Below, in pieces: positions 2,551 through 48,388 of a DNA stretch of 64,000 nucleotides (position 1 is its first letter; each line of letters starts with the position of its first letter). The DNA comes from a virus. Position numbers and translations under genes: made by a program. The stretch is from IMG/VR virus record IMGVR_UViG_3300005573_000052, one strand, 5' to 3'. The notes beneath the pieces were generated by a model. The model saw nothing but the letters and a program-made list of their open reading frames with translations, had not been told where the DNA came from and made no database searches.

Positions 2551-3714
2551 TCACTTGCCCCCGACCATATCGCGGAACTTGGCGAAGAGGTAGTCGGCCA
2601 CGTCCTTGCGGGATTCCAGCAGGGCATAAAGCTGGTTCATGCCTTGGACCTTCTCGGGGATGTCGGAGAAGCCTTTGTCGGATAGCTCCTTGAGGAGGAC
2701 CGGGCTGAGCGTGAACCAACTGCCGCCCTTGGTAATCAAGCCCCAGAGAAGGAGCTGGTCGGCGATTTCTCGCTCACGCCAGATGGCAGACCCGTTAGCC
2801 ACCCCATACTTGATGGGGATTTCCACTGTGACATACCGCTTCTCAGCGCTGCTCTTCTGCAACTTGACCTTGAGGATATGCCCGAGCGCAGGATTGGTCA
2901 AGCGGTTGAGTCGCTCATCAGGGTTCTTAAGAATCAGGTCGCCCTCATACCAGTTGAGGAACTCGGCGGTCTCGTTTGCATTGTGGCTGATAGAATTCCC
3001 GCCTGAGCTGTTACCTTGACGCGGCGGGGTCTTATCATACATATTGAGCTTGATTTCTGCCGTAACCTGAGAGATAAAAAATGCGATATGGCCCATCTCG
3101 TTGAGAGCCTGACCCATGCGCTGGAACATCTGAGCGGTCAACTTGGGTGCGCCAGCCACCCGTGCCTCCTCGTCGGTAGCCTTGTTGCGGTCATTCCGCA
3201 GAATCATATTGTTGAGCGAGTCAGTCACAAAAGCATAGCGACACTTGGTGGGGTTGTTCATGACGAGGTCACGCATCATGTCGATCCACGTCTCATAGAC
3301 ACTGTTTTTGAAGATGAGGATGGTGCCGGGAACCCAGTCCTTGGCGTCCGTAACGAGAGGGTGGCGGGCGCGGGCCATGTTCTTGGTGCTGAATCGCCCC
3401 TCTGCCTTGCACCATACCGCCCGACTACCGGGCACCTCGTCAAGGAACGTGTCCACCACATTGAGGACAAACGGGGTCTTACCCAGATTCGGTCCGCCAA
3501 GAATTCGATGTGCTCCTTCAGAAAATCCGCCGATTTCCATGTCAAGATTGAGTGAGCCCGAGGAAACGCGAAACGGAGGAACGGTCTCAGTTAGGTTGTA
3601 ATGGTCCTCGGCAGTCTTCTTGAGGTAAGCCTCCATCTGTGCGGTCGGGTCAAGGACCTTCTTGTCATCGGTCTTCTCGGGGGCGGGCTTAGCGGTGGAT
3701 TTGGGATTGGCCAT
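2551..3714 (-). CDS. recA: RecA/UvsX-like recombinase
   Basis: GSLNLDMEIGG, Walker A GGPNLGKT, AEGR, VTDSL Walker B, FISQV, GGSWF. Confidence 0.85.
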   Translation of the reverse strand: MANPKSTAKPAPEKTDDKKVLDPTAQMEAYLKKTAEDHYNLTETVPPFRVSSGSLNLDMEIGGFSEGAHRILGGPNLGKTPFVLNVVDTFLDEVPGSRAVWCKAEGRFSTKNMARARHPLVTDAKDWVPGTILIFKNSVYETWIDMMRDLVMNNPTKCRYAFVTDSLNNMILRNDRNKATDEEARVAGAPKLTAQMFQRMGQALNEMGHIAFFISQVTAEIKLNMYDKTPPRQGNSSGGNSISHNANETAEFLNWYEGDLILKNPDERLNRLTNPALGHILKVKLQKSSAEKRYVTVEIPIKYGVANGSAIWREREIADQLLLWGLITKGGSWFTLSPVLLKELSDKGFSDIPEKVQGMNQLYALLESRKDVADYLFAKFRDMVGGK

Positions 3715-3761
3715 AAAAAGGAAAGGGTGAAAACAGTAGTATGAAGGGGTGGCAAAAAAAA

Positions 3762-6936: not shown

Positions 6937-7382
6937 GAAGAAAATGAGGGGTTAGAGGTGAGCAGCTCGGGGTTCTCGTGAATATTGCCGATGACTACAA
7001 TATCGTCGTTAGTCGTATAATCGCCTCCGACCAAAAATCTTGACAAGAGCCGGTCCGACTCAACCTGATATTCGACCACCGAAATGTAGAAACGGTCATC
7101 TGCTACCCCCGGAGTATCACGAGGGTAGCGAACGATATCGCCCTCATAGATATCCCGGCCATTGCGGTCGGTCAAACCCGTGAACATCTCAATCTCCCTG
7201 CCGAAACCCGCGAGACGACACACACCCGGTTCCGGGTGCAACCAGCCGATTTCGATTCGCGGGTCATCAACCCAATGGTCTACGTGCCAGACGCGGAACT
7301 TGATGACTCGGATGTTATCGGGAGTGCTCATAATAGGTGCTGCTATCTCACCATAATAGCCCAATTGGGCTGCTTGCGTCAA
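6933..7382 (-). CDS. YopX-family phage protein
   Basis: IKFRVW, MFTGLTDRNGRDIYEGDIV, VIGNIHENPELL. Confidence 0.8.
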   Translation of the reverse strand: MTQAAQLGYYGEIAAPIMSTPDNIRVIKFRVWHVDHWVDDPRIEIGWLHPEPGVCRLAGFGREIEMFTGLTDRNGRDIYEGDIVRYPRDTPGVADDRFYISVVEYQVESDRLLSRFLVGGDYTTNDDIVVIGNIHENPELLTSNPSFSS

Positions 7383-7385
7383 CCA

Positions 7386-7808
7386 CTAAATCTGCGCCAG
7401 TATCTCGGAACTCGCCCGAATCTTGGCTCCCAGCCCATCCACGATAGCTATCCCCAACTCACAACACACCACCGCCTCGGGTATTTCGCCCGCGAACCTG
7501 TCGCCGCCCTTGGCGAAGATATATCGGTGGGAATCGCCCAATTCGGCGCGGATGAGACGGATGGTAGCGCAGACGCTCTTGTCCTCGTCCACCGACAGCA
7601 CCACATCATCCACCATGGCCAGCGACCGGACTATCTCTAGCCGATCCTCCTGCGATTGAAACGACTTGGAACCCTTGAGCGCGACTTGGTAGTCCGAGTT
7701 GACGATGACTATCAGTGTGTCGCCCAGCTCCTTGGCGCGCCAAAGGTAGTCGAGATGGCCAATGTGAAGGGGGTTGAAGTAGCCTGAGGCGATAACAATC
7801 GTGGACAT
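7386..7808 (-). CDS. cytidylyl/adenylyltransferase (HIGH-motif nucleotidyltransferase)
   Basis: ASGYFNPLHIGH, LIVIVNSD, FAKGGDR. Confidence 0.85.
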   Translation of the reverse strand: MSTIVIASGYFNPLHIGHLDYLWRAKELGDTLIVIVNSDYQVALKGSKSFQSQEDRLEIVRSLAMVDDVVLSVDEDKSVCATIRLIRAELGDSHRYIFAKGGDRFAGEIPEAVVCCELGIAIVDGLGAKIRASSEILAQI

Positions 7809-32407: not shown

Positions 32408-32479
32408 GGCCCATTCGATAATCAGCTATGTCGGCGTGTTTTCACCACGCAGTAGGGAGGGCGGCACTCCCATGGGCTA
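32408..32479 (+). tRNA. tRNA-Glu(UUC)
   Basis: GGCCCAT/ATGGGCT; GCGTG-TTTTCAC-CACGC; T-loop GGCGGCA. Confidence 0.8.
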
Positions 32480-32480
32480 A

Positions 32481-32555
32481 GCCTCAGAGATGTTGACAGA
32501 TGCATGTCAGTCCGCCAGACTGAATGACCCGGAGCGTTGCCGGGCTGGGGCACCA
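32481..32555 (+). tRNA. tRNA-Gly(GCC)
   Basis: GCCTCAG/CTGGGGC; TCAGT-CCGCCAG-ACTGA; CCA. Confidence 0.8.
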
Positions 32556-32560
32556 ATTTA

Positions 32561-32641
32561 TCCCTCGTTAGCTCAGTCGGGTTAAGAGCAGCCCGCTTTT
32601 AACGGGTAGGTCGCGTTGTTCCCAACACGCACGGGGGACCA
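32561..32641 (+). tRNA. tRNA-Lys(UUU)
   Basis: GCCCG-CTTTTAA-CGGGT; irregular T arm; CCA. Confidence 0.85.
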
Positions 32642-32709
32642 TTCCTGTTAGACAGATTTCGGACCAGCGGTCCATAAACCTCTAACGACTGGGTGTATAT
32701 TACGGCGAC

Positions 32710-33708
32710 ATGTCCAACAAACGTCGCACAAGCGCCATATGGCAAATGCCATCAGATCAGTTCAAGACCATCGTTGCTCAGAGTTTTACTCTGACAGAGG
32801 TTCTTTCGCATTTCTCAATGCGCAACGTAGGTAGTAACAATCTCACCCTCAAGCGTCGCATCAAGGAGGAAGGAGTAGACATCTCTCATTTTAGACGAAA
32901 GGGTGGTGGTCGAAAGGGTCCGCGAGGCATGACACTCGAAGAGTGTATGTCCACCGTATTTATCGAAGGAAAGGTGGGATGTAAAAGCTCCGTGAGGCGT
33001 TACCTGAGAAGGTTCAAGTTGGTAGAAGAAAAATGTGCCATATGCTCACTGGGGCTAGAATGGAACGGCCAACCTCTTACACTTCAATTGGATCATATTA
33101 GTGGAGATTCTACGGACGACAGAGTGGAAAACTTGCGTTGGATATGTCCCAACTGCCACAGCCAGACAGATACCTACACCGGTAAGGCGAACAAAGGCCG
33201 GGTAGGGGCTAAAATCTTTTCACTTCCTAAAAGGACCGTTCCCACTGCCAACGAAACTTTGGTTATTACCGACAACGGAGAGACAAACATAGTCAAACGG
33301 GCTTCAATGACACGGGCCGAGATTAACGCCAAACACCGTAGCCATTGGCCATCCAAGGAGACATTGAGTGCCAAGGTATGGGAGAAGCCTCTCACTCACC
33401 TGAAAGACGAGTTTGGGTTCAAATCTATTACCTCGTTAAAGCAAATGATCAAGTTGTATCAAATACAAGCACCTCCTGTCGGATTCTGGGCTCGTTTGAA
33501 AGCCGGTTGGTCACGCGACCAAGCTATCAACCCTCCCACGCAGGCTCCGAAAAGATGCCTTCGTAAATTCACTGACGATCAAGTGCGTGAAATTCGCTCT
33601 CGCCTCGATAAAGGAGACAAACCGGCGGCTCTGGCTAGGGCCTATGGATGTAGCCACAAGACGATGCGAGATATACGAGACCGTCAACGATACGTTTCCG
33701 TCGTCTAA
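32710..33708 (+). CDS. HNH homing endonuclease in the tRNA island
   Basis: CAIC...LQLDHISGDSTDDRVENLRWICPNCH; HTH-like C-terminus. Confidence 0.85.
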   Translation: MSNKRRTSAIWQMPSDQFKTIVAQSFTLTEVLSHFSMRNVGSNNLTLKRRIKEEGVDISHFRRKGGGRKGPRGMTLEECMSTVFIEGKVGCKSSVRRYLRRFKLVEEKCAICSLGLEWNGQPLTLQLDHISGDSTDDRVENLRWICPNCHSQTDTYTGKANKGRVGAKIFSLPKRTVPTANETLVITDNGETNIVKRASMTRAEINAKHRSHWPSKETLSAKVWEKPLTHLKDEFGFKSITSLKQMIKLYQIQAPPVGFWARLKAGWSRDQAINPPTQAPKRCLRKFTDDQVREIRSRLDKGDKPAALARAYGCSHKTMRDIRDRQRYVSVV

Positions 33709-33772
33709 TCTTTCCAGTCCCGGAGGCCATTCCTAGCGCGACCTTTCCAAGGCGTGATGAATCCCGAGTTTT

Positions 33773-33846
33773 GACGGATTAGCCAAGCGGCGAGGCCACC
33801 CTCTGCAAAAGGGTTCAGACCAGTTCGACTCTGGTATCCGTCTCCA
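33773..33846 (+). tRNA. tRNA-Cys(GCA)
   Basis: ACCCT-CTGCAAA-AGGGT; TTCGA; U73-CCA. Confidence 0.92.
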
Positions 33847-33938
33847 CCTTTCCCCCTCCGTAAGATGTCCCTTAGCAGGGTTTAAGATACGGCGTGCGTG
33901 CTGACAAGGCAAAGCGCAAGGGATGCGAGGAAAATTTT

Positions 33939-34018
33939 GGGGCACGGGGCTGCTTGGCGTGGCCACCTCTTTTGCACAGAGGTTAATCAGCAGGTTTCGA
34001 TCATCTGGTGCTCCACCA
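33939..34018 (+). tRNA. tRNA-Ala(UGC)
   Basis: G3-U70; CCTCT-TTTGCAC-AGAGG; CCA. Confidence 0.85.
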
Positions 34019-34140
34019 ATTTATGCGGCCTCGGATAAACGGGGTTCCATGGTAGCTTGAAGCGGGGGTGCACTCCTGCCATTGGCCATGAGAGCCGTTA
34101 CGTCCGGCATGGGTGAAAATCCTTGAGTCCGCCCAATTTA

Positions 34141-34215
34141 GCCTCAGAGATGTTGATGGACACATGCGAGTTTTCCAAACTTGACTACTCGGATCGTTAC
34201 CGGGCTGGGGCACCA
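34141..34215 (+). tRNA. tRNA-Gly(UCC)
   Basis: same acceptor stem as Gly(GCC); loop TTTCCAA; CCA. Confidence 0.85.
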
Positions 34216-34302
34216 TCGTGTATTAGACCGTTAAAGACGCGGGGCAGATTGTAAACCTGTCGCCTTCGGGCCGACTCAGAGCGTTACTGAGATACACGAC
34301 CA
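34216..34302 (+). tRNA. tRNA-Tyr(GUA)
   Basis: loop TTGTAAA; long variable arm; CCA. Confidence 0.85.
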
Positions 34303-34308
34303 TTTCAC

Positions 34309-34381
34309 TGGCAGATAGCTTAAGTAGTGAAGCCCGCGATTGATAATCGCGAGAGTATCAGTGCAAATCTGATTCTGCCAA
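34309..34381 (+). tRNA. tRNA-Ile(GAU)
   Basis: CGCGA-TTGATAA-TCGCG; no encoded CCA. Confidence 0.85.
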
Positions 34382-34389
34382 ATTTTCCA

Positions 34390-34464
34390 CAGGACCGACA
34401 GGTATGTTATCGGCGAGCACTCCAAACGCTACGCGAGTTAGTTAAATTCTAACCGGTCCTGCCA
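34390..34464 (+). tRNA. tRNA-Trp(CCA)
   Basis: CAGGACC/GGTCCTG; loop CTCCAAA. Confidence 0.8.
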
Positions 34465-34465
34465 T

Positions 34466-34537
34466 GGAGTCCGGTCTAGTGGCCAGTTTCCCCTGAAGAG
34501 GGAGACGGACGCGATGCGATCTCGCGGGGCTCCACCA
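34466..34537 (+). tRNA. tRNA-Phe(GAA)
   Basis: TTCCC-CTGAAGA-GGGAG; CCA. Confidence 0.8.
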
Positions 34538-34545
34538 TTTTACGT

Positions 34546-34628
34546 TGCAGTCACAAGCCGAATGACGCTGAGGGTCTTCATACGTCCCGCGAAAGCTATG
34601 CCGAGTGAAACTCTCGGGGCTGCATCCA
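34546..34628 (+). tRNA. tRNA-Met(CAU) with extended variable region
   Basis: loop TTCATAC; GC-GAAA-GC extra hairpin; CCA. Confidence 0.7.
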
Positions 34629-34632
34629 ACTT

Positions 34633-34708
34633 TCACTCCGTGGGACATTGGTTGTCCGCCAGTTTTGGGAACTGGATCAAGTGTGTCCGATTCACACCGG
34701 GGTGACCA
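34633..34708 (+). tRNA. tRNA-Pro(UGG)
   Basis: CCAGT-TTTGGGA-ACTGG; CCA. Confidence 0.85.
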
Positions 34709-34783
34709 TCTTGAGGGAAACGCGGGTTCAACCCCCGCCGGGGCCACGGGGCCTCGTCGTCTAGACAGGTTAAGAAACCCTCT
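34709..34783 (+). ncRNA. circularly permuted, anticodon-less tRNA-like RNA
   Basis: 3' half (GAGGG-AAAC-T arm-CGGGGCCA) precedes 5' half (GGCCTCG-D arm-CCCTC). Confidence 0.75.
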
Positions 34784-34792
34784 AACTTTTTT

Positions 34793-34870
34793 GGCGCGTT
34801 AGCTCAGTCCATTCAGAGCAGCCCGTTGTCTGCGGGAAGGCCATGGGAGAGAAGCCCATACGCGCCGCCA
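34793..34870 (+). tRNA. tRNA-Asp(GUC)
   Basis: loop TTGTCTG; T-loop AGAGAAG; G73-CCA. Confidence 0.8.
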
Positions 34871-34874
34871 TTTT

Positions 34875-35032
34875 CTCCTGTGTCCGTCTGATTATCCCGT
34901 GCGTAGGGACTCAGCGCTAGTTGACAGCAACGCCACCGCTTTGTGGCTTAGGCTTAGCTAAACCCAATGCGTCCCGTAGTAGGTGAAAATTAGCTCTCAT
35001 CGCCCGGGCTACGCGATTGGTAGACACAGGAG
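34875..35032 (+). ncRNA. tmRNA mRNA-like-domain-like RNA
   Basis: 10-bp closing helix, pk1-like pseudoknot, UAGUU|GAC resume context, 12-codon frame. Confidence 0.5.
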
Positions 35033-35046
35033 GATTCATTTCGTTT

Positions 35047-35135
35047 GGGGGATTAGCTCAGTTGATTAGAGCGCTTCGTTTACACCGAAGAGGCCGAATA
35101 GGTTCACGCGGGTTTGAATCCTGCATCCCTCACCA
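35047..35135 (+). tRNA. tRNA-Val(UAC) with long variable arm
   Basis: CTTCG-TTTACAC-CGAAG; 17-nt variable region; CCA. Confidence 0.85.
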
Positions 35136-35141
35136 TTTTAT

Positions 35142-35238
35142 TGCTCAGACCCAGATGGCATGTTAGCTGGCTTCGACTGTTAATCGAATGCGGGGAGATA
35201 GTCTCAAACCAACGGTGGGGCGGCACCACCCTGAGCAG
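35142..35238 (+). tRNA. tRNA-Asn(GUU) with long variable insertion
   Basis: TTCGA-CTGTTAA-TCGAA; T-loop GGCGGCA; G73. Confidence 0.75.
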
Positions 35239-35239
35239 C

Positions 35240-35315
35240 GGGAGACGAATCGTCTAGTGACGATGTTTGCACGACACGCAAAATCAGTAGGGTGCAATCC
35301 CCTAGTCTCCCACCA
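35240..35315 (+). tRNA. tRNA-Val(GAC)
   Basis: TTTGC-ACGACAC-GCAAA; CCA. Confidence 0.8.
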
Positions 35316-35321
35316 TTTTAC

Positions 35322-35400
35322 CGGTCTGTAGGGTAGCCTGCCTTATCCCGCTTGCATGGGGTGCAAGAAATCGCCAGTTGAAATCTGGCCAGACCGACCA
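35322..35400 (+). tRNA. tRNA-Pro(GGG)
   Basis: CTTGC-ATGGGGT-GCAAG; C1-G72, A73. Confidence 0.85.
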
Positions 35401-35406
35401 TTTTAT

Positions 35407-35483
35407 CAGCACGTAGCTCAGCCTAGCAGAGCGATTGCCTCGGGTGCAATAGGTCGGGGATGCGATTTCCTCCGTGCTGACCA
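35407..35483 (+). tRNA. tRNA-Pro(CGG)
   Basis: ATTGC-CTCGGGT-GCAAT; CCA. Confidence 0.88.
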
Positions 35484-35487
35484 TTTC

Positions 35488-35640
35488 CGGGCTCGCAAGG
35501 GTCCGTTGTCATTCCACCTACGATGCAGCTTTACCGCTGACGCAACCGGAGGCAACAACGGAATGCACTTCCAGTGTCGTCCAAGCCTCGATAGGCGGCA
35601 CTCGAACAGGCAGGATACTACTGCGGGAGTCGTAGACATT
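35488..35640 (+). ncRNA. candidate structured ncRNA
   Basis: multiple hairpins plus long-range CTACGA/TCGTAG pairing; followed by a T-run. Confidence 0.4.
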
Positions 35641-35644
35641 TTTT

Positions 35645-35769
35645 GGGCCGTCAGTCGGCGCGCAACGGGGACAAACCCACCGGTAATCAACCCGGTCGCG
35701 ACCGGCACTAGCGAGCCGTGCGATTGCCTACGGGAGCGCGCGGAGAGGATGCGATTTCCTCGCGGTCCA
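35645..35769 (+). ncRNA. alanyl-acceptor tRNA-like RNA (tmRNA TLD-like)
   Basis: GGGCCGT/GCGGTCC with G3-U70 and A73; no D stem; 3-nt linker to T arm. Confidence 0.6.
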
Positions 35770-35781
35770 CTTTTGTTTTAC

Positions 35782-35888
35782 CGTGCTGAAGTTCAGCGTA
35801 AGGCCCGGGTTGATCACCGGGAGATAACGCGAGGAGAACACTCCCCGGAAGGAGAAGGTAGGAGGTGAAATACCTCTCGGCACGACCA
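35782..35888 (+). ncRNA. tRNA-like RNA with 8-nt anticodon loop and 39-nt insertion
   Basis: CGTGCTG/CGGCACG-A-CCA; CCCGG-GTTGATCA-CCGGG. Confidence 0.55.
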
Positions 35889-35949
35889 ATTCCGCGCTCA
35901 TTCTGGAAAGTCTGTAAAGCCGACGCGGGCAAAGTATCGGCGCTTTCAT

Positions 35950-36026
35950 GGTCCTCTGATGTAAATGGATAAGCATACCGCCCTTTGAAGGCGAGAGTCA
36001 CGTTTGCCAAGCGTGGGGGACTGCCA
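35950..36026 (+). tRNA. tRNA-Gln(UUG)
   Basis: CCGCC-CTTTGAA-GGCGA; G73-CCA. Confidence 0.8.
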
Positions 36027-36033
36027 ATTTTAC

Positions 36034-36109
36034 TGCTCCGTGGGATAACATCTAGTCCACACCCCTCTGAAGGGTCGAGGCGTCCGTGAGACTCGGGCCG
36101 GGGCAGCCA
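36034..36109 (+). tRNA. tRNA-Gln(CUG)
   Basis: ACCC-CTCTGAA-GGGT; G73-CCA. Confidence 0.8.
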
Positions 36110-36113
36110 TTTT

Positions 36114-36189
36114 GGGCCGTTAGCTCATTCAGCAGAGTATCGCTATGGCATAGCGGAGGTGGGGAGAGCAAAGCTCCCACGGTCCACCA
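36114..36189 (+). tRNA. tRNA-Ala(GGC)
   Basis: G3-U70; TCGCT-ATGGCAT-AGCGG; T-loop AGCAAAG. Confidence 0.85.
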
Positions 36190-36190
36190 A

Positions 36191-36445
36191 TTTCAAGCAG
36201 GAGAGCGTTCGCGGCAGAGATTGCTACGGCCATCTGTCGAGGAAGTTCGCGCCAGAAAAGAAGCCGACTGGGAGGGTGGCTTGGCTTGACCGCCGTCATT
36301 CTTACCGATGACCACCACCCGCCAACACCACATGGTATCTGCAACCCGAAAGCGCCCGAGGGTAGTTCTTCCCGCCAGCAGGGCATGGTTGGGGCTCAGA
36401 CAAATGAACGCATGAAACAGAAGCGCGGCTACGTCCACTTGAAAA
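36191..36445 (+). ncRNA. rnpB: RNase P RNA-like ribozyme with reduced specificity domain
   Basis: GAGGAAGTTCGCGC (CR-I) pairs with ACAGAAGCGCGGCTA (CR-V); P1, P2, P3, P5, P15 (GGGTAG) and P18 can all be drawn. Confidence 0.8.
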
Positions 36446-36451
36446 TTTTAC

Positions 36452-36538
36452 GGATCGGTCCCTATAGCAGCGATTAGCCCTGACTCTTAATCAGGTTGGC
36501 GAAAGCCTACGACGTGGGTGCGAGTCCCACCCGGTCCA
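36452..36538 (+). tRNA. tRNA-Lys(CUU) with long variable arm
   Basis: CCTGA-CTCTTAA-TCAGG; GGC-GAAA-GCC arm. Confidence 0.8.
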
Positions 36539-36539
36539 C

Positions 36540-36613
36540 GGTAGAGACAGCAAGAGCTGAGGACGGTTTCATAAGCCGTGCCGAGTAGGTTGCAATTACC
36601 TCCTCTACCACCA
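36540..36613 (+). tRNA. tRNA-Met(CAU)
   Basis: ACGGT-TTCATAA-GCCGT; CCA. Confidence 0.75.
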
Positions 36614-36617
36614 TTTT

Positions 36618-36693
36618 GCTGACCAAGCATAGACAGCGATGCACCACATTGGTAATGTGGATATGATGGGCGCACATCCCATGGTCAGCTCCA
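36618..36693 (+). tRNA. tRNA-Thr(GGU)
   Basis: CCACA-TTGGTAA-TGTGG; T-loop CGCACAT. Confidence 0.85.
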
Positions 36694-36698
36694 TTTTT

Positions 36699-36786
36699 GG
36701 GGTTGTGGCGTAACTGGATAGCCGTGCGAGGTCGAGAGCCTCGTGGTCGTGAGACCGTAGGGGTCCGAGTCCCCTCTTCCCCACCA
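36699..36786 (+). tRNA. tRNA-Leu(GAG)
   Basis: CGAGG-TCGAGAG-CCTCG; variable arm; CCA. Confidence 0.8.
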
Positions 36787-36791
36787 TTTTC

Positions 36792-36866
36792 GGGCGTATG
36801 ACGTAACTGGATAACCGTGCTGAGTTTAGACCTCAGATTTTGCAGGTCCGAGTCCTGCTACGCCTA
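36792..36866 (+). tRNA. tRNA-Leu(UAG) with short variable loop
   Basis: CTGAG-TTTAGAC-CTCAG; variable loop ATTTT. Confidence 0.8.
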
Positions 36867-36867
36867 C

Positions 36868-36942
36868 GGGGTCATCGAATAAGAGTAGTTCACCAGATTC
36901 TCAATCTGGAAATCGGAGTGCGTTGGCTCCGTGGCCCCACCA
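36868..36942 (+). tRNA. tRNA-Glu(CUC)
   Basis: CCAGA-TTCTCAA-TCTGG; CCA. Confidence 0.8.
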
Positions 36943-36947
36943 ATTTA

Positions 36948-37030
36948 CGGCTAGTGGATAAGGGAAACTGGTTACAACCGCGAAACTTAAAATTTCGTAT
37001 CCGCTGTGGGTCCGAATCCCACCTAGCCGA
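36948..37030 (+). tRNA. tRNA-Leu(UAA)
   Basis: CGAAA-CTTAAAA-TTTCG. Confidence 0.8.
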
Positions 37031-37035
37031 CTTTC

Positions 37036-37127
37036 GGGCGTATGGTGTAACAGAAACACGGAGGTCTCAAAAGCCTCTTTTGGGGCTCGCCCCCATATTT
37101 ACGGAGCATTGCCGTATACGCCCACCA
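37036..37127 (+). tRNA. tRNA-Leu(CAA)
   Basis: GAGGT-CTCAAAA-GCCTC; long variable arm; CCA. Confidence 0.82.
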
Positions 37128-37132
37128 TCTTT

Positions 37133-37269
37133 CAGCGGTAGCATATCGGTCAATGCTGTCCTCGCAACATGGGACTAGTCTGCCCAGCCTCCAAAGGCCA
37201 CGGATTAAGGTTGGGCAGAGAGACGCCCGCAAAGAGCGTTGAAGTGGGGTTCAAATCCCCTCACGCTGA
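37133..37269 (+). ncRNA. tRNA-like RNA with ~65-nt two-hairpin insertion
   Basis: CAGCG/CGCTG acceptor, D arm GCAT/ATGC, T arm GGGG-TTCAAAT-CCCC; 8-nt anticodon loop. Confidence 0.55.
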
Positions 37270-37350
37270 ATTCACCTATAGGGTTGACGGGCGGTAGCGC
37301 AGTTTGGCGACACCGGGTCGCTCGCAAACTGCTCCGATACCCTCCTTTTC

Positions 37351-37425
37351 GCGCATGTAGCTCAAAGGAAGAGCAGAGGACTCATAATCCTTTGGTTGAG
37401 ATGTCGGAATTCTCCGTGCGCACCA
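37351..37425 (+). tRNA. tRNA-Ile2/Met(CAU)
   Basis: GAGGA-CTCATAA-TCCTT-TGGT resembles Ile2-type anticodon arms; CCA. Confidence 0.8.
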
Positions 37426-37429
37426 TTTT

Positions 37430-37507
37430 GGTTCCTACTCCTAGATCAGCGAGGACCTCGACTCGTAATCGAGAACTGAGGCGGCTGCGATGCCGCAGGA
37501 ACCTCCA
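37430..37507 (+). tRNA. tRNA-Thr(CGU)
   Basis: CTCGA-CTCGTAA-TCGAG; U73-CCA. Confidence 0.8.
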
Positions 37508-37526
37508 TCTTTTTTTACTTTTTCAC

Positions 37527-37556
37527 TTGACACCGGCCACCCAATCGGGCTATGGT
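37527..37556 (+). promoter_or_regulatory. sigma70-type promoter of the Y RNA-Ro60 unit
   Basis: TTGACA-N18-TATGGT after a T-rich tract. Confidence 0.7.
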
Positions 37557-37584
37557 ATCCGTGTTCATTCTCACTTTCCCTTTT

Positions 37585-37661
37585 GCCGTGGTGCCAGACG
37601 ACCAGTTCCTCGCTGTAATCGACCGGACGAAAGTCCACTCTGGTCGTCGCCTGTTCCCGGC
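37585..37661 (+). ncRNA. Y-RNA-like RNA A
   Basis: GCCG/CGGC and CGACCAG/CTGGTCG stems; TGGTG...TCGCCTGTTCC motif shared with B and C. Confidence 0.7.
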
Positions 37662-37670
37662 AGTTATTTT

Positions 37671-37758
37671 TCTGCGATGGCGTCAGATGACGGTTACTTC
37701 TTCAATCCATAACTGAATCGCCCGCAAGGGCTAACCGTTCTCGCTTGTTCCTCGCAGA
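37671..37758 (+). ncRNA. Y-RNA-like RNA B
   Basis: TCTGCGA/TCGCAGA and ACGGTTA/TAACCGT stems; TGGCG...TCGCTTGTTCC. Confidence 0.7.
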
Positions 37759-37775
37759 TTCTCTTTCTCACTTTT

Positions 37776-37919
37776 GGAGTGGCGTAGAGCTAACCAGTTC
37801 CTCGAATACGGATCGAGAGGTCGGGGTTCAAATCCCCGGTGTCGCTTCGGCGACACTAGTGTAACGGTAGCACGCTTAGTGGTCGCAAGGCCACGCTCTG
37901 GTGCTCGCTTGTTCCCTCC
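37776..37919 (+). ncRNA. YrlA-like Y RNA C with permuted tRNA domain
   Basis: T arm, 7-bp acceptor-like stem capped by cUUCGg, D arm; shared motif; directly upstream of the TROVE gene. Confidence 0.85.
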
Positions 37920-37973
37920 AAATTCATTTCCTCGTTGCGCAGCAATTACGCCGCCGACGATGGCACTAGACCC

Positions 37974-39293
37974 ATGAAGACCAATACAAAATCCCCCCGC
38001 GCCAAAGTGTTTACCCACGAAGGTGCTCCCGCTGCCCACGCCACCGCCAAGCAGCAACTCCGCCGCTCCGTCATGTCCTGCATGCTCTGGGAGTCGGAAT
38101 TCCATGAAAGCGGCGAAGATATCGCCCAGCGAATCGCCTCGCTCGTTGCCAAGTGCAAACCTGAGGACGTGGCACTGATCGCTCGCGAAGCCCGCGAACA
38201 GATGAAACTGCGACATGTCCCGCTGCTCCTCGTGCGTGAAATGGCCCGCCTGCCTTCTCACCGCCCTTACGTGGCCGACACGCTTAACGCCGTCATCCAG
38301 CGCGCCGACGAACTCTCCGAGTTTCTGGCTATCTACTGGAAGTCGGGCAAAGACCAGCCTCTCGCCGCTCAGGTCAAAAAGGGACTGGCTCGGGCCTTCA
38401 CCCGATTCGATGAGTATGCCCTGAGCAAATATGACCGCGCCGGTGATGTCAAACTGCGGGATGCTCTCTTCCTCTGTCATGCCAAGCCGCAGGACAAGAA
38501 GCAAGAACGCCTGTGGAAACGACTCGTCAATGGCGAATTGAAGCCTGCCGGAACTTGGGAAGAGCAGCTTTCCGCCGGTAAGGACAAAAAGGCAGTGTTC
38601 ACCAAGTTGATCAAAGACGGTGAACTGGGCGCTCTCGCCCTGCTCCGCAACCTGCGCGGCATGACCGAGGCGGGAGTTAGCCACGAAATCATCACCCAAG
38701 CATTGGCTGGCATGAAAACCGAGCGGGTTCTCCCGTTTCGCTTCATCTCTGCCGCACGCTACGCCCCCCAGTTCGAGGCCGAATTGGAACAGGCGATGTT
38801 CAAGTGTCTTGAGGGAGTGGACAAGCTGAAGGGCTACACCATTCTGCTTGTGGACGTGTCGGGCTCCATGGATTCACCGATCAGCGCCAAGTCTGACCTG
38901 ACGCGTATCGACGCTGCTTGCGGACTCGCCATCCTATTGCGCGAAATCTGCGAACGGGTGGATATCTGCACGTTCTCCAGCGGGATAGTCGGAGTCCCTC
39001 CTCGCCGAGGATTCGCGCTGCGGGATGCCATCAAGAACTCGCAGCCCCATGCAAGCACCGATCTAGGTAGAGCACTCGATACCCTCAAGTATGGAACGGG
39101 TAAAGATCGCATCGTCGTCATCACGGACGAACAGTCCCATACGGCGGTTAATTCCCCCAAGACCACGGGTTACATGCTCAACGTCGCTTCAGCGGCAAAC
39201 GGAGTGGGTTACGGGGCCTGGAACCATATCGACGGTTGGAGTGAGAGTTGTGTGAAATTCGTGGCCGAGCTGGAGAAGCAAAGCGCCGATTGA
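37974..39293 (+). CDS. rsr: Ro60/Rsr TROVE-domain RNA-binding protein with vWA domain
   Basis: FTHEGAPA, KLRHVPL, IQRADE, FDEYALSKY, TWE, LALLRNLR, LPFRF, LVDVSGSM (MIDAS), VITDEQ. Confidence 0.95.
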   Translation: MKTNTKSPRAKVFTHEGAPAAHATAKQQLRRSVMSCMLWESEFHESGEDIAQRIASLVAKCKPEDVALIAREAREQMKLRHVPLLLVREMARLPSHRPYVADTLNAVIQRADELSEFLAIYWKSGKDQPLAAQVKKGLARAFTRFDEYALSKYDRAGDVKLRDALFLCHAKPQDKKQERLWKRLVNGELKPAGTWEEQLSAGKDKKAVFTKLIKDGELGALALLRNLRGMTEAGVSHEIITQALAGMKTERVLPFRFISAARYAPQFEAELEQAMFKCLEGVDKLKGYTILLVDVSGSMDSPISAKSDLTRIDAACGLAILLREICERVDICTFSSGIVGVPPRRGFALRDAIKNSQPHASTDLGRALDTLKYGTGKDRIVVITDEQSHTAVNSPKTTGYMLNVASAANGVGYGAWNHIDGWSESCVKFVAELEKQSAD

Positions 39294-39316
39294 CCGGGCT
39301 GAAAGGTCAAGTTTAC

Positions 39317-39349
39317 AGAGGGGGCGAACAAGCCTCCTCTTTCTTTTTT
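39317..39349 (+). terminator. intrinsic terminator
   Basis: AGAGGGGG/CCTCCTCT stem plus T tract after rsr. Confidence 0.65.
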
Positions 39350-39351
39350 AC

Positions 39352-39427
39352 GGCTCGTTGCCTCAGTGTTCACAGGAGTGCCTTTGTAGCGCACCATTCG
39401 GCGGTTAAAATCCGCCACGAGCCTCCA
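39352..39427 (+). tRNA. tRNA-Thr(UGU)
   Basis: loop TTTGTAG; GGCTCGT/ACGAGCC; U73-CCA. Confidence 0.75.
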
Positions 39428-39434
39428 TTTTCAC

Positions 39435-39596
39435 GCCCTAGTAGCTCAGGCCCTACCAAATATCGGGTATCAGAAGAGCGCGCTCATTAGTTGGTCACCC
39501 AAGCGAACGGCACTTAGTGAACTCATCAATTGAGGGTTTGCGATGCTGCCGTTCGACAAGCGAGGTCGTCGGTGCCAAATCCGACCTAGGGCTCCA
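39435..39596 (+). tRNA. tRNA with ~65-nt insertion in the anticodon loop and a hairpin in the D loop
   Basis: perfect GCCCTAG/CTAGGGC, GCTC/GAGC D stem, CGCTC/AAGCG, AGGTC, T arm, CCA. Confidence 0.65.
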
Positions 39597-39602
39597 TTTC
39601 AT

Positions 39603-39681
39603 GGTGACAAAGGCAGAAGTAACTCAAAGCGCGGCCCTGTGAAGGCCGTTTAAGCGGGTGTGAGACCCGTTTGTCACCCCA
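39603..39681 (+). tRNA. tRNA-His(GUG)
   Basis: 8-bp acceptor with G-1:C73; CGGCC-CTGTGAA-GGCCG. Confidence 0.88.
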
Positions 39682-39687
39682 ATTCAC

Positions 39688-39764
39688 GCGACACTCGGCA
39701 ACCGAATAGTCACCCTGCTTGCGGAGCAGAATCAGTCCCAGTTTGAATCTGGGGTGTCGCACCA
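39688..39764 (+). tRNA. tRNA-Arg(GCG)
   Basis: CTGC-TTGCGGA-GCAG; CCA. Confidence 0.78.
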
Positions 39765-39772
39765 TTTTTCAT

Positions 39773-39855
39773 GCGAGCGTAGCCGAAGGGAGCTTCTATC
39801 TCCTTCCCCGTAACCGGAGCTGCAAATGGAGGTTCGACTCCTCTCGCTCGTGCCA
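39773..39855 (+). tRNA. arm-swapped tRNA-Arg(UCU)-like
   Basis: anticodon hairpin (loop CTTCTAT) precedes D-like arm (loop AACCGGA); canonical T arm; G73-CCA. Confidence 0.65.
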
Positions 39856-39859
39856 TTTC

Positions 39860-39935
39860 GCGCTGGTCGGCAATGTATAGTCAACCTCGTTTCGACCGAG
39901 AATCAGTGTGGGTTAGAGTCTCACCCGGCGCACCA
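39860..39935 (+). tRNA. tRNA-Arg(UCG)
   Basis: CTCG-TTTCGAC-CGAG; CCA. Confidence 0.8.
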
Positions 39936-39941
39936 TTTCAC

Positions 39942-40022
39942 GCGAACGTATCCCCTCGGTTTCCTAAACCGGCGAAAGGGTAATCGGAATCCATGGAGGA
40001 TCGTCCCCTCTCGTTCGCACCA
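39942..40022 (+). tRNA. arm-swapped tRNA-Arg(CCU)-like
   Basis: TCGGT-TTCCTAA-ACCGG precedes GGGT-AATCGGA-ATCC; A73-CCA. Confidence 0.7.
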
Positions 40023-40099
40023 CTTGAACCCCATGAAGGTTCCACCCGGCGAGCCTCGGACAGAGCGGTTACAGGCCGAATCACAGCGTTAATTTTTAC

Positions 40100-40189
40100 G
40101 GAGAGGTGGCAGAGTGGCCTATTGCACTGAGCTTGAAACTCAGAACAGAGTAATATCTGTCGCGAGTCCGAATCTCGCTCTCTCCTCCA
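40100..40189 (+). tRNA. tRNA-Ser(UGA)
   Basis: CTGAG-CTTGAAA-CTCAG; long variable arm; CCA. Confidence 0.9.
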
Positions 40190-40193
40190 TCTT

Positions 40194-40283
40194 AGAGAGC
40201 CAACTGAACGAGGTTCAGGACTGCTTGGAAAGCAGCTCGGGCCGCGCAAGCGACCTACGGGGCAGCACCGTGACTCTCTGCCA
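40194..40283 (+). tRNA. tRNA-Ser(GGA)
   Basis: CTGC-TTGGAAA-GCAG; G73-CCA. Confidence 0.82.
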
Positions 40284-41409
40284 TTTTCACCGGTCGTCCA
40301 CGTCTCCCTCGAAAAGTCGAAGACAACAATCCAAATCGTATCATCGCGTCACGTGTTACCTCGTGATTAAATCCAATGGCTAATCCAGCCTGTCGAAGAG
40401 ACCCTTTCGTTTTAAACACTTCGTAAGCTAATTGTGCCTGCTCGGCTGTTGGACGATGAAGTGGTTTACGAATGCGTTTTTGGCTCACGAGAGCCTGTTC
40501 ATGAGTATATCCCGCATGGCGTCGAACCCAATAACCTATAGGAGGTAACGCAACTCCGTATCGCTTGGCCCAACGACGAACCGAGTTACCGTTTACGCCA
40601 TAATCCTTGGCTATGTTCTCTATGGACTTACTCCACACAAGGATGGTCAACTCTTCCTTGGAAGGCCACACTACCTTACGGGAGGCCACTGCGGCAGCAG
40701 CTCGATTGCCATATATGGGCTTGTCCAGAGAACGCAAATATTCTTTCGCCTCGGGAGTCATAGCCCTAACGGATCGTTCTTTGGGGGATATCCGTATGTG
40801 CACGTCACCGAGGTCTCGCGACGTATCCGGTTCGTCTGTAGACCGAAAAACCAACCCCTCTTTGGCCATGATTCCATGAATGGTGTCGTAATTACGACCC
40901 TTAGGGGCCAAACCCAATCGCCGACACACATCACTCGGACTAGTGCATTGGGGGATTGCCTCAATATACATCTGGCGAGATACCTTGACTGTTCGTTTAC
41001 GCGTGGCGGCCCCCTTGTGATTAGGGGCTAATCCATGACAATTTCGACAAAGAACCTGAAGATTCTTTAACTCGTTATTATTATGGTTACCGTCTACGTG
41101 ATGTAACTCTATCGGTATCGGCTCTCCCTGCCATCTGTCATTACCGCATCTCTCACAGACAGGACTTTTAAGACCCTCTCGAAAAAGACGCTTCTTCAAA
41201 TTATCGCTCGCGAGAGGATACTGATTAGATAGGTAAACCTCGATAGGGCGTCCACTGTAAGGGGGCCAGTGAGACGTGTCAATCTGATTCTCGGCAAGGA
41301 GTCGTCTAATACGTTTTTTGTCTCCTCCTCCAAGAAGACGCAAAAGCATATTGCAGGAGGTTGATTCGGCGGCAAGTTGACGTAGTTGGTCGATATTAAG
41401 GGTAGTCAT
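40255..41409 (-). CDS. HNH homing endonuclease, antisense to the tRNA island
   Basis: CERC...IELHHVDGNHNNNELKNLQVLCRNCH; shares WPSKE..VW.K..PP.G.W with 32710. Confidence 0.85.
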   Translation of the reverse strand: MTTLNIDQLRQLAAESTSCNMLLRLLGGGDKKRIRRLLAENQIDTSHWPPYSGRPIEVYLSNQYPLASDNLKKRLFREGLKSPVCERCGNDRWQGEPIPIELHHVDGNHNNNELKNLQVLCRNCHGLAPNHKGAATRKRTVKVSRQMYIEAIPQCTSPSDVCRRLGLAPKGRNYDTIHGIMAKEGLVFRSTDEPDTSRDLGDVHIRISPKERSVRAMTPEAKEYLRSLDKPIYGNRAAAAVASRKVVWPSKEELTILVWSKSIENIAKDYGVNGNSVRRWAKRYGVALPPIGYWVRRHAGYTHEQALVSQKRIRKPLHRPTAEQAQLAYEVFKTKGSLRQAGLAIGFNHEVTRDAMIRFGLLSSTFRGRRGRPVKMAESHGAAP

Positions 41410-41475
41410 GTTCACCCTAGATACACCGCTGAAGACCCGGTTTGTGTGCAATTCTCCACTTTCCGCCATTTTTAC

Positions 41476-41565
41476 GGTAGGTGAATCCGTGCAGGTCACG
41501 GAGCGGCCCTCGAAAAGCCTGCGCGCCCGCAAGGACGTTTTCTGCGACTGAAACGCCTACCGCCA
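41476..41565 (+). tRNA. tRNA-Ser(CGA)
   Basis: loop CTCGAAA; variable arm; G73-CCA. Confidence 0.72.
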
Positions 41566-41566
41566 C

Positions 41567-41654
41567 GGTAGATAAACTCGGGAAGCCCGGGCGCGCATTG
41601 CTAATGCGATGGACGGCGAAAGCCGTTGAGGACCATGACCTCTGTCTACCGCCA
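41567..41654 (+). tRNA. tRNA-Ser(GCU)
   Basis: CGCA-TTGCTAA-TGCG; GACGGC-GAAA-GCCGTT arm; G73-CCA. Confidence 0.85.
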
Positions 41655-41741: not shown

Positions 41742-42365
41742 ATGAGCACCATCCTCGACAAGCAGATTTGCCTCAAGCTAAACAAGAACTGGCAAGGCGT
41801 AGGCTTTGTCACGATAAAACAAGCTGTCACCTTCCTCTGCTCGGAGCAGGACGGCGAGCATCCCGGTTTCGCGCTCGATATCGAGATGGTCACAAATGAG
41901 AACGGCGAATCGGTCCTGTCCTACGCCAACCCGACCAAGTGGGAGGACTGGCTGAAGCTTCCCGTGCGCGAGTCCGACCTTGCTATCACGACTGGTCGCG
42001 GGCAAATTCGCGCTCCGCTGGTAGTTGTCTGTGCCAACTATGCCAAGGTTCCGACCCGCACCACGCGCTGGTCCACGGGCAATGTCCATCGCCGCGACAA
42101 TTACACCTGCGCCTACACGGGCGAGAAGCTCAGTCACGCAACCGCCACGGTTGACCATATCCAGCCCCGTTCACGCGGCGGCAAGGACGCGTGGGAAAAT
42201 ACCGTGTCGTGTCACAAGCGCGTCAACCTGCTCAAGGCCGACCGCACGCCCGAGGAAGCCGGACTGAAACTGCTCGTCAAGCCCAAGGCTCCGCCCATCA
42301 TGCCCGTGGTCATCACGGCGGATGAGGCGCGGCACGAGGCGCAGCGACACTTCCTGATTAACTAG
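41742..42365 (+). CDS. HNH endonuclease (McrA-like)
   Basis: RDNYTCAYTG...TVDHIQPRSRGGKDAWENTVSCHKRVN. Confidence 0.88.
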   Translation: MSTILDKQICLKLNKNWQGVGFVTIKQAVTFLCSEQDGEHPGFALDIEMVTNENGESVLSYANPTKWEDWLKLPVRESDLAITTGRGQIRAPLVVVCANYAKVPTRTTRWSTGNVHRRDNYTCAYTGEKLSHATATVDHIQPRSRGGKDAWENTVSCHKRVNLLKADRTPEEAGLKLLVKPKAPPIMPVVITADEARHEAQRHFLIN

Positions 42366-47317: not shown

Positions 47318-48388
47318 GTGAAACCCCACCTCTCCATGAAAAGGAAAATACAAAAAGAATGGCATGAAGAAATCTGCCAAAAACGGCGAAGCGGCCAGAC
47401 CGTAAAGTCTTTGGCAAAAGAATATAATGTTAGCGAAACAGCCATCGGAAGAACGCTTAGGGCGAATGGGGTAAAAATAGCACCGCGATATTTTCGCAAA
47501 CATTGGTTTGATTTCCGTTTTTTTGATGAGATCGACTCCGAAGAAAAATCTTACATTTTGGGCTTTTTATATGCAGACGGCTCCAATTGTCCTAAAAATG
47601 GTAAGGTTACTTTAGAACTTCAGGATGCTGATAAGGAAATTTTAGAAAAAATTGCAACGGCAATAGGTTTCAGCGGAAAGTTATTTCCTTTAACCCCAAG
47701 ATGCAAAGGGAAGGTTTATCCTTCATGCCGACTTTCACTAAATAGTCGAATATTTTCAGATCGTTGTTCTGAACTCGGAGTTGTTTATGACAAATCCTTT
47801 AAGATTCAGATGCCTTCAGAAACAATTGTTCCTCCCTCTCTTCTTCCCCATTTTATCCGGGGCTATTTTGACGGAGATGGGAGCTTTTCTTTTCGACCAG
47901 AAAAGAGTCGCTTTGCAACGATAAATTTTATTGGGAACCCCTTGTTTATCGACCAATTACAACAATATTTTGTATCTGCTCTCAGCATCAAAGGGTCCAC
48001 CCATCCTCATAAAAACCAAAAATCGAAATATCTAGGTATCTCTGGTAACCTTCAGATAGAAAGGGTTTTGGAACATTTGTATCAAAATGCCACCATTTAT
48101 CTTAAACGGAAACACGATAAGTATATTATCTTTAAGGGGTTGCGTAGAACTTTCTCTCGTAAGGCCGGATGCTCATCTCGGTTTTTTGGTGTTTCTAAAA
48201 CTGAAGACAAAACATGGAAAGCTGGGGTAAATTTTGGAGGCAAACAGCACTATCTGGGAGCCTTTAAGACAGAGGAGGAGGCGGCACGGGTTTACGATAA
48301 ATGGTGTAGAGAACGAGGTCACAATCTTCAGTTGTTGAATTTTCCTAAGTCCGAGGCGGTAGACATACTGCTTGCTGGGGTAGGGTAA
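47318..48388 (+). CDS. LAGLIDADG homing endonuclease with AP2-like C-terminus
   Basis: YILGFLYADGS and FIRGYFDGDGS; AT-rich. Confidence 0.88.
   Translation: MKPHLSMKRKIQKEWHEEICQKRRSGQTVKSLAKEYNVSETAIGRTLRANGVKIAPRYFRKHWFDFRFFDEIDSEEKSYILGFLYADGSNCPKNGKVTLELQDADKEILEKIATAIGFSGKLFPLTPRCKGKVYPSCRLSLNSRIFSDRCSELGVVYDKSFKIQMPSETIVPPSLLPHFIRGYFDGDGSFSFRPEKSRFATINFIGNPLFIDQLQQYFVSALSIKGSTHPHKNQKSKYLGISGNLQIERVLEHLYQNATIYLKRKHDKYIIFKGLRRTFSRKAGCSSRFFGVSKTEDKTWKAGVNFGGKQHYLGAFKTEEEAARVYDKWCRERGHNLQLLNFPKSEAVDILLAGVG

Follow-up and report, generated by a model that had tools for sequence, protein, structure and literature searches.

The 64-kb stretch of DNA analysed here (IMG/VR record IMGVR_UViG_3300005573_000052; hereafter, the window) belongs to an uncultured large phage and is present as DNA in two hot-spring metagenome runs from two studies. 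Between positions 32408 and 41654 its plus strand carries a tRNA island of 41 tRNA genes, among which lie the genes of a short RNase P RNA and of a Ro60 homolog. The tRNA genes display 39 different anticodons, CAU being the sole repeat (three copies), so that every one of the 20 amino acids is served and, with standard wobble, every one of the 61 sense codons; three CAU genes is the number expected for an initiator, an elongator Met and an Ile2 tRNA. By architecture and anticodon content these are tRNAs, yet they depart from the family in its 'universal' nucleotides. Our analysis indicates that their corner, or elbow, formed by the D- and T-loops, has been re-coded with other nucleotides and not lost, most often as A18/G55.

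Standard annotation overlooks most of the set. ARAGORN found 13 of the 41 genes at default settings and about 30 at a lowered threshold, and Rfam recovered 8-9 at its gathering score (29 bits), the remaining tRNAs scoring below it because of their variant loops. Counts of tRNAs in phage metagenomes, when based on these defaults, are thus underestimated. A custom cloverleaf scanner, which scores the four stems, U33 and R37 only and ignores the sequence of the D- and T-loops, returned 24 matches on the plus strand of the window and none on the minus strand, and most of the gaps left after these 24 strict matches were settled by a more permissive search that took the acceptor and the T-arm as its anchors.

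The conventional parts of the molecules are well preserved. In an alignment of 119 tRNAs, 97.3% of the stem and 54:58 cells hold a standard pair, compared with 56% after shuffling. Among the strict matches in the window the anticodon loop has 7 nt, with U33 in 22/24 and R37 in 23/24. G3:U70 is present in both tRNA-Ala genes, while tRNA-His (39604-39681) combines G-1 (position 39603) with C73. CCA is encoded by 35 of the 41 tRNAs, and behind these units comes a spacer of 4-9 nt that is mostly rich in T. Of the six units that lack CCA, five (Glu-UUC, Asn, Lys-CUU, Leu-UAG and Leu-UAA) have the next tRNA 1-5 nt away; for Ile-GAU this distance is 9 nt. A preliminary description of this DNA had called the set near-complete, with stems, anticodons and identity elements kept and genes packed 0-7 nt apart. 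The set proved to be complete and the conserved elements are confirmed; the packing is indeed tight, but the measured spacing is 1-9 nt within blocks, and the blocks are split by gaps of 77-1505 nt, in which further structured RNAs are found along with two HNH genes and the gene of Ro60.

The departure of the T-loops from TTCRANY is real, systematic and far past chance. TTC occurs in 3 of the 41 (Cys, Ala-UGC and an odd Arg-like unit at 39773), leaving 38 without UUC; U54 and U55 are kept together in 10, and 31 are without U54 or U55. The D-loop contains GG in 9/24 strict matches. With the same scanner, the Caulobacter phage CcrColossus gave TTC in 27/27 and D-loop GG in 26/27, and the Acinetobacter phage PhaR5 gave TTC in 7/8. 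Among related phages the TTC share spans 0% to 100%. In addition, tRNA-Thr(GGU), with CGCACAT in the window, is 81% identical to a soil-metagenome ortholog (Ga0137404 contig) with CGCACGT. The systematic departure reported in the preliminary description therefore holds against the control phages, and all the variant T-loops quoted there are present, its CCATGAC corresponding to ACCATGA in our register (tRNA-Ser(GCU), 41567).

In canonical tRNAs, C56 is the partner of G19 and T54 that of A58, and G18, stacked between bases 57 and 58, makes contact with Psi55 (PMC4810234). In the window and its Ro60-linked relatives, the T-loop dinucleotide 55-56 is accompanied by a corresponding D-loop dinucleotide 18-19: UC by GG, GC by AG, UU by GA, UG by GC, UA by GU and GA by AU. 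As D-loop length varies, a register-tolerant match rule was used and tested against shuffled T-loop/D-loop assignments, and counts of 18/19 by MAFFT column were dropped because the D-loop register differs between rows. The predicted D-loop dinucleotide was present in 21 of the 24 loop-agnostic matches in the window. Taken with the Ro60-linked relatives, 95/104 tRNAs were matched versus 44.5 ± 3.9 after shuffling, the observed value being reached in 0/20,000 shuffles, while the non-canonical T-loops alone gave 43/49 versus 14.6 ± 2.9. Adding the arrays adjacent to relatives of the short RNase P RNA raised the number of distinct tRNAs to 223, with 205 matched versus 110 ± 5.8 shuffled. G55-C56 was found with AG in 47/52 cases and with GG in 3/52, and U55-C56 with GG in 131/135 (Fisher p = 1.7e-36). 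The bias toward G55/A18 concerns 19/41 tRNAs in the window, 10/12 in locus L225 and 8/8 in L193.

A similar pattern is seen at 54/58, where the pooled counts are U-A 173, A-U 23, G-G 12, A-A 5 and C-C 4; the pair-counting tool applied to the 119-tRNA alignment gave UA 89, AU 15 (both sides changed) and no single-side changes. The strict matches of the window retain G53:C61 in 20/24 cases and R57 in 23/24. The U8:A14 pair has the same kind of variants (pooled U-A 175, A-A 15, A-U 7, G-G 6, C-C 3; non-U:A in 8/24 in the window), and this same-shape replacement series shows that the re-coding extends over the tertiary core as a whole, with its strongest effect at the elbow. Since every change in a T-loop has its counterpart in the D-loop, the contact between the two loops is conserved by compensation. 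Position 19:56 stays Watson-Crick as G:C, A:U, C:G or U:A, and U54·A58 is exchanged for A·U, G·G, C·C or A·A. The loss of the elbow that had been claimed for this island is contradicted by this covariation, which also rules out an elbow-less tRNA of the mitochondrial type.

All of these solutions coexist along the island, whose tRNA genes all lie on the plus strand. G55-C56 with a D-loop AG is found in tRNA-Glu(UUC) (32408-32479; GGCGGCA; no CCA, 1 nt to the next tRNA), Gly(GCC) (32481-32555; AGCGTTG; A8/U14), Ile(GAU) (34309-34381; TGCAAAT; no CCA), Val(GAC) (35240-35315; TGCAATC), Pro(CGG) (35407-35483; TGCGATT), Ala(GGC) (36114-36189; AGCAAAG; G3:U70), Thr(GGU) (36618-36693; CGCACAT, C54/C58) and Leu(CAA) (37036-37127; AGCATTG). 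T-loops with G55-C56 are also those of Tyr(GUA) (34217-34302; AGCGTTA; long variable arm), Phe(GAA) (34466-34537; TGCGATC), Asn(GUU) (35142-35238; GGCGGCA; no CCA), Lys(CUU) (36452-36538; TGCGAGT; no CCA), the second tRNA(CAU) (36540-36613; TGCAATT) and Thr(CGU) (37430-37507), the loop of which has 6 nt (TGCGAT). GA at 55-56 with AT in the D-loop characterizes the first tRNA(CAU) (34546-34628; TGAAACT), Asp(GUC) (34793-34870; AGAGAAG) and Gln(CUG) (36034-36109; TGAGACT).

Other tRNAs change position 56. Val(UAC) (35047-35135) and Arg(GCG) (39688-39764) share TTTGAAT with GA in the D region, in the former as A19:U56; Pro(GGG) (35322-35400) has TTGAAAT with GC (C19:G56); Trp(CCA) (34391-34464; TTAAATT), Thr(UGU) (39352-39427; TTAAAAT, U19:A56) and Arg(UCG) (39860-39935; TTAGAGT) have GT. 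TCC-type loops go with GG in Pro(UGG) (34634-34708; TCCGATT), Leu(GAG) (36699-36786; TCCGAGT), Leu(UAG) (36792-36866; TCCGAGT; no CCA) and Ser(UGA) (40100-40189; TCCGAAT), and Leu(UAA) (36948-37030; no CCA) also carries TCCGAAT. Canonical T-loops are present in Cys(GCA) (33773-33846; TTCGACT with GG), in Ala(UGC) (33939-34018; TTCGATC; G3:U70) and in the Arg-like unit (UCU) (39773-39855; TTCGACT), where the D/anticodon arrangement is irregular, as it is in the Arg-like unit (CCU) (39942-40022; ATCGTCC). GG is retained next to a changed 54/58 in the third tRNA(CAU) (37351-37425; GTCGGAA, G54/G58) and in Gly(UCC) (34141-34215; ATCGTTA, A54/U58 swap). The latter and its paralog Gly(GCC) have an identical acceptor stem and a near-identical D stem, and differ by GG/ATCGTTA versus AG/AGCGTTG. 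tRNA-His(GUG) has TGTGAGA. The D-loop rule is not matched in Gln(UUG) (35950-36026; TTGCCAA), the T-loop of Glu(CUC) (36868-36942) has 8 nt (TGCGTTGG), and Lys(UUU) (32562-32641) has an irregular T-arm with either an 8-nt loop or a bulged stem.

Three of the four tRNA-Ser genes have a 6-bp D stem with a 3-5-nt loop: Ser(GGA) (40194-40283; GAG triloop, T-loop GGCAGCA), Ser(CGA) (41476-41565; 8-nt T-loop) and Ser(GCU) (41567-41654; AAG triloop, T-loop ACCATGA). The matching AG or G is still present in these short loops. Their D arm resembles that of tRNA-Sec, while the D arm of Ser(UGA) is normal. Long variable arms in bacteria are normally confined to Leu, Ser and Tyr tRNAs; in the island, variable regions of 12-25 nt are also seen in the first tRNA(CAU) (12 nt), Val(UAC) (17 nt), Lys(CUU) (18 nt) and Asn(GUU) (25 nt).

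The RNase P RNA gene (36191-36445, plus strand) begins 1 nt past the CCA of tRNA-Ala(GGC) and ends 6 nt before tRNA-Lys(CUU); given that it abuts both tRNAs, the RNA is probably excised from a shared precursor by its own activity. With 255 nt it keeps P1-P5 and P15/16, and CR-I (GAGGAA...), CR-IV, CR-V (ACAGAA...) and P4 align to the Rfam model, the specificity-domain part of which is skipped. Its best clan score is 26.2 bits, to RF00373 (gathering 84; RF00010 gathering 100). In place of the specificity domain stands a conserved stub made up of UGGGAG, a hairpin of variable length and GCCAACACCACA / GUUAAUACCACA. The P5 strands are separated by about 75 nt in the window and by about 30 nt in the smallest members of the family (L209, L185 and L151). 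In bacterial RNase P, a double T-loop made of AG..A (J11/12) and UG..A (in the junction strand that faces it) docks the tRNA elbow (PMC3664808). In the alignment to the Rfam model, neither CR-II/CR-III nor this AG..A / UG..A module was recognisable between the P5 strands of the phage RNA, in agreement with the earlier view of an RNase P RNA devoid of its elbow-reading domain, while the lone conserved UGGGA pentamer may represent a reduced docking element.

Homologs of this mini RNase P RNA were searched for with a CR-I-based pattern and then with a hidden Markov model of the family, and were found in 6 IMG/VR loci and 13 metagenome loci, nearly all beside tRNA genes. The aligned set comprised 14 distinct sequences, including that of the window, with identical copies collapsed. 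RNAalifold supported P3, P4, P15/16 and the stem after the conserved UGGGAG, with compensatory changes in 17/32 pairs; at the P4 columns 13 or more of the 14 homologs agree, and P3 and P15/16 have compensatory pairs. The mini RNase P RNA is real and a member of a recurrent family that has no Rfam annotation. The exact CR-I 15-mer was rejected as a probe, as its matches were mostly due to chance in coding DNA, and 20 metagenome loci that matched the longer CR-I pattern but had no mini RNase P homolog contained no Rfam family whatever; the true homologs were told apart by combining this longer pattern with the family model. Used as a lone nhmmer query, the mini RNase P RNA gave no match in the Ro60-linked loci. 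A regular-expression search of six frames for the RnpA 'RNR' motif was also negative, a weak result since only 64 kb of the genome is covered. The soil-metagenome contig L221 carries two mini RNase P copies in opposite orientation (1750-1979 on the plus and 3505-3742 on the minus strand), one of them with several small indels. Furthermore, the tRNA array of L015, a 109-kb IMG/VR contig with terminal repeats from a related phage, includes a bona fide RNase P RNA of bacterial type A (7071-7392; RF00010, 147.6 bits), in which P13/P14 and P18 are deleted and both docking loops, AGUGA and UGAAA, are kept.

These loci allow a comparison between RNase P type and T-loop type. Beside a mini RNase P RNA, TTC was found in 17/17 tRNAs of L074, 4/4 of L183, 15/16 of L229, 17/20 of L089, 6/7 of L163, 5/6 of L207, 5/6 of L082 and 2/5 of L185, and in 1/12 of L225, 0/8 of L193, 0/8 of L221 and 3/24 loop-agnostic matches of the window. 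Conversely, 11/23 T-loops in L015 are variant although the docking module is kept. The check proposed with the preliminary description, namely whether T-loops are more degenerate in rnpB-carrying phages, thus gave a negative answer: canonical arrays lie beside the mini RNA, and L015 is the converse case. The mini RNase P RNA thus does not look like a device specific to variant elbows, and the data lend no support to a coupling of elbow loss with a private RNase P. In docking, RNase P stacks on the flat 19:56 pair and leaves its bases unread (PMC4810234, PMC3664808), and this stacking type of docking fits with the absence of coupling between RNase P type and variant elbows.

The Ro60 homolog (37935-39293, plus strand) has a TROVE domain (PF05731, E = 2.2e-18) followed by a von Willebrand factor A (vWA) domain (VWA_2, E = 3.8e-06). 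Among 26 Ro60-linked loci, arrays with 7 or more tRNAs lie within 10 kb in only 6 distinct cases (L005 duplicates L015), and in two complete 45-kb Ro60 phages no tRNA array was present in the 10 kb on either side of Ro60; Ro60 is therefore not tied to tRNA arrays. Upstream of the gene lie Y-RNA-like RNAs (37527-37930, plus strand), one of which includes a tRNA-like module (37779-37846), and a further tRNA-like RNA of 140 nt is located at 37131-37275 (plus strand). Both modules have the canonical T-loop TTCAAAT, the 140-nt RNA also having GG in its D-loop, and neither has a normal 7-nt anticodon loop. Their TTCAAAT contrasts with the loss of TTC in nearly all true tRNAs of the island.

Segments with no open reading frame (ORF) and no standard cloverleaf were also noted at 33847-33938, 34019-34140, 34709-34792, 34871-35046, 35484-35949, 39435-39596 and 40023-40099. 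The fifth of these contains tRNA-like RNAs of 124 nt (35645-35768) and 103 nt (35782-35888), and the one at 39435-39596 (plus strand) is a tRNA-like unit of 158 nt with insertions and an 8-nt T-loop. Three HNH and one LAGLIDADG endonuclease genes lie in or adjoin the island: the HNH gene within the array at 32710-33708 (plus), a second HNH gene at 40255-41532 (minus), which has about 28 nt in common with the 3' end of tRNA-Ser(GGA), and genes at 41742-42365 (plus) and 47318-48388 (plus). Across the window as a whole there are genes for a ribonucleotide reductase and a UvsX-like recombinase, for several HNH endonucleases and for glycosyltransferases. A search with the ribonucleotide reductase gave two distant matches only, both in metagenome-assembled genomes and with no pointer to the host, and a search among viral contigs for relatives of the ORF upstream of the island found none.

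The explanation that best accommodates these observations as a whole, to which we assign a probability of roughly 55%, is that of a complete working tRNA set with a compensated elbow, a benefit against host defence and an added RNase P capacity. The tRNAs would fold as a normal L-shape and act in translation. What would be lost is the U54-U55-C56 / G18-G19 sequence that is read by T-loop-specific proteins, such as TrmA-, TruB- and TrmH-type enzymes and T-loop-cutting nucleases; as U54, U55, C56, G18 and G19 are replaced, the tRNAs would presumably no longer be substrates of enzymes acting on those bases. The most likely benefit would be continued phage translation in a host whose defence attacks the T-loop of canonical tRNAs and so destroys them. 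A nuclease of this type is Cash, a CRISPR-associated Schlafen protein of a Chloroflexi bacterium, whose activator is cyclic tetra-adenylate (cA4) and which cuts many tRNAs 5' of U55 in UUC; a single substitution of U54 or U55 abolishes cleavage (PMC13462974). By analogy with Cash, escape from T-loop-directed tRNA defence is plausible, and if a nuclease destroys most host tRNAs, a complete replacement set makes sense. The tRNAs would be transcribed as polycistronic precursors and freed by an RNase P cut at each 5' end, with the mini RNase P RNA, presumably together with a host protein subunit, adding processing capacity.

Several points weigh against this proposal. Ten tRNAs retain U54-U55, and Cash also cuts some anticodon loops at U-C (PMC13462974), which is not avoided here. 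One genome holds several matched solutions, with U8:A14 varying as well (8/24). The A18/G55 rule was derived from the same data on which it was tested, only the Watson-Crick rule for 19:56 having been set beforehand, and the D-loop match was judged leniently, across an 18-nt stretch, for 15 of the 41 units. Moreover, drift under relaxed sequence constraint gives the same picture nearly as well with no defence pressure at all.

Such neutral compensatory drift is the strongest competitor, although we consider it rather unlikely. Phage tRNAs function only briefly under this scenario and do not need the host loop modifications, so that their tertiary nucleotides wander with no adaptive value. The diversity of the substitutions is what drift would produce, with at least six 18-19/55-56 combinations and five 54/58 combinations, several of them per genome, the same replacement series at U8:A14, and a TTC share that runs from 0% to 100% across related phages. 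Less easily reconciled with it are the extreme share of variants in the window (38/41 non-TTC), the directional G55/A18 bias there and in L225 and L193, and the recurrence of the same odd loop in distant samples, as with CGCAC(A/G)T in Thr(GGU). TTCAAAT is also retained by the tRNA-like modules next to Ro60, in the very genome in which the tRNAs have changed.

A loss of the elbow as in animal mitochondria, with a private phage RNase P and quality control by Ro60 and Y RNAs, is improbable. The mini RNase P RNA with no alignable CR-II/CR-III would fit it, as would the three tRNA-Ser with 6-bp D stems and 3-5-nt loops, and co-loss is known in mitochondria (PMC3664808, PMC4810234). However, the D/T-loop covariation indicates that the contact is kept, a pattern extending to the matching AG or G of the short Ser D-loops. 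Canonical tRNAs also lie beside mini RNase P (L074, L089, L229, L183, L163 and L207), variant loops make up 11/23 in L015 beside a type A RNase P RNA with both docking loops, and RNase P stacks on 19:56 with the bases unread. Adaptation to heat, in which alternative corner nucleotides would stabilise unmodified tRNAs at hot-spring temperature, is slightly less probable still; the DNA does come from hot-spring metagenomes, but the same variants occur in IMG/VR contigs of many samples and in L193, L221 and L225, which come from other metagenome projects (the comparison being made at the level of the project). Least credible are decayed pseudogenes or non-decoding tRNA look-alikes, since stems are intact, U33/R37 kept, identity elements present and the anticodon set complete and non-redundant, even though most units miss the default ARAGORN and Rfam thresholds and some neighbouring units are truly non-decoding tRNA-like RNAs.

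Compared with known systems, the island shares with canonical bacterial and phage tRNAs (RF00005, CcrColossus) the cloverleaf, the 7-nt anticodon loop with U33, the identity elements and the clustering, and CcrColossus likewise has a Ro60 (TROVE) gene in the same genome. What sets it apart from them is TTC in 3/41 tRNAs, A18/G55, 19:56 pairs other than G:C, and 54/58 pairs that are swapped. The 'universal' D- and T-loop nucleotides are also missing from animal mitochondrial tRNAs and from tRNA-Pyl, and in mitochondria the absence of G18-G19/T-Psi-C accompanies that of docking T-loops in RNase P and in the L1 stalk (PMC7609411, PMC4810234). In those tRNAs, however, the contact is weakened or gone and the loops have shrunk, while the loops in the window are of normal size and the contact is kept by matched substitution. 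With the bacterial type A RNase P RNA (RF00010), the mini RNA shares P4 with CR-I, CR-IV and CR-V, as well as P3 and P15/16, but it has about 255 nt, no CR-II/CR-III and a stub in place of the specificity domain. The specificity domain is also strongly reduced in the archaeal type T RNase P RNA. The tRNAs of phage T5 evade tRNA-cutting defences through changes in the anticodon loop. The logic of phage-borne tRNAs without the nuclease recognition nucleotides would be common to both cases, but here the T-loop and a compensating D-loop are concerned across the whole set, and resistance is predicted from sequence alone. Our literature search found no paper on elbow covariation in phage tRNAs, on A18/G55 or on a phage-encoded RNase P RNA.

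T54-Psi55-C56 and G18-G19 are treated as universal in cytoplasmic tRNA, and a matched natural set of this kind separates what the fold needs from what serves as a handle for proteins. It supplies natural double-mutant pairs, e.g., Gly-GCC versus Gly-UCC, as well as candidate orthogonal tRNA scaffolds and a bench-testable hypothesis of how a phage might counter nucleases that cut T-loops. We tentatively suggest, while regarding the odds as somewhat against it, that complete alternative-elbow sets (A18·G55, any Watson-Crick 19:56, same-shape 54·58) in a lineage of uncultured phages may constitute a nuclease-proof, modification-independent translation kit that outlasts host T-loop-directed tRNA destruction, in which case T54-Psi55-C56/G18-G19 would be dispensable for the function of tRNA in bacteria.

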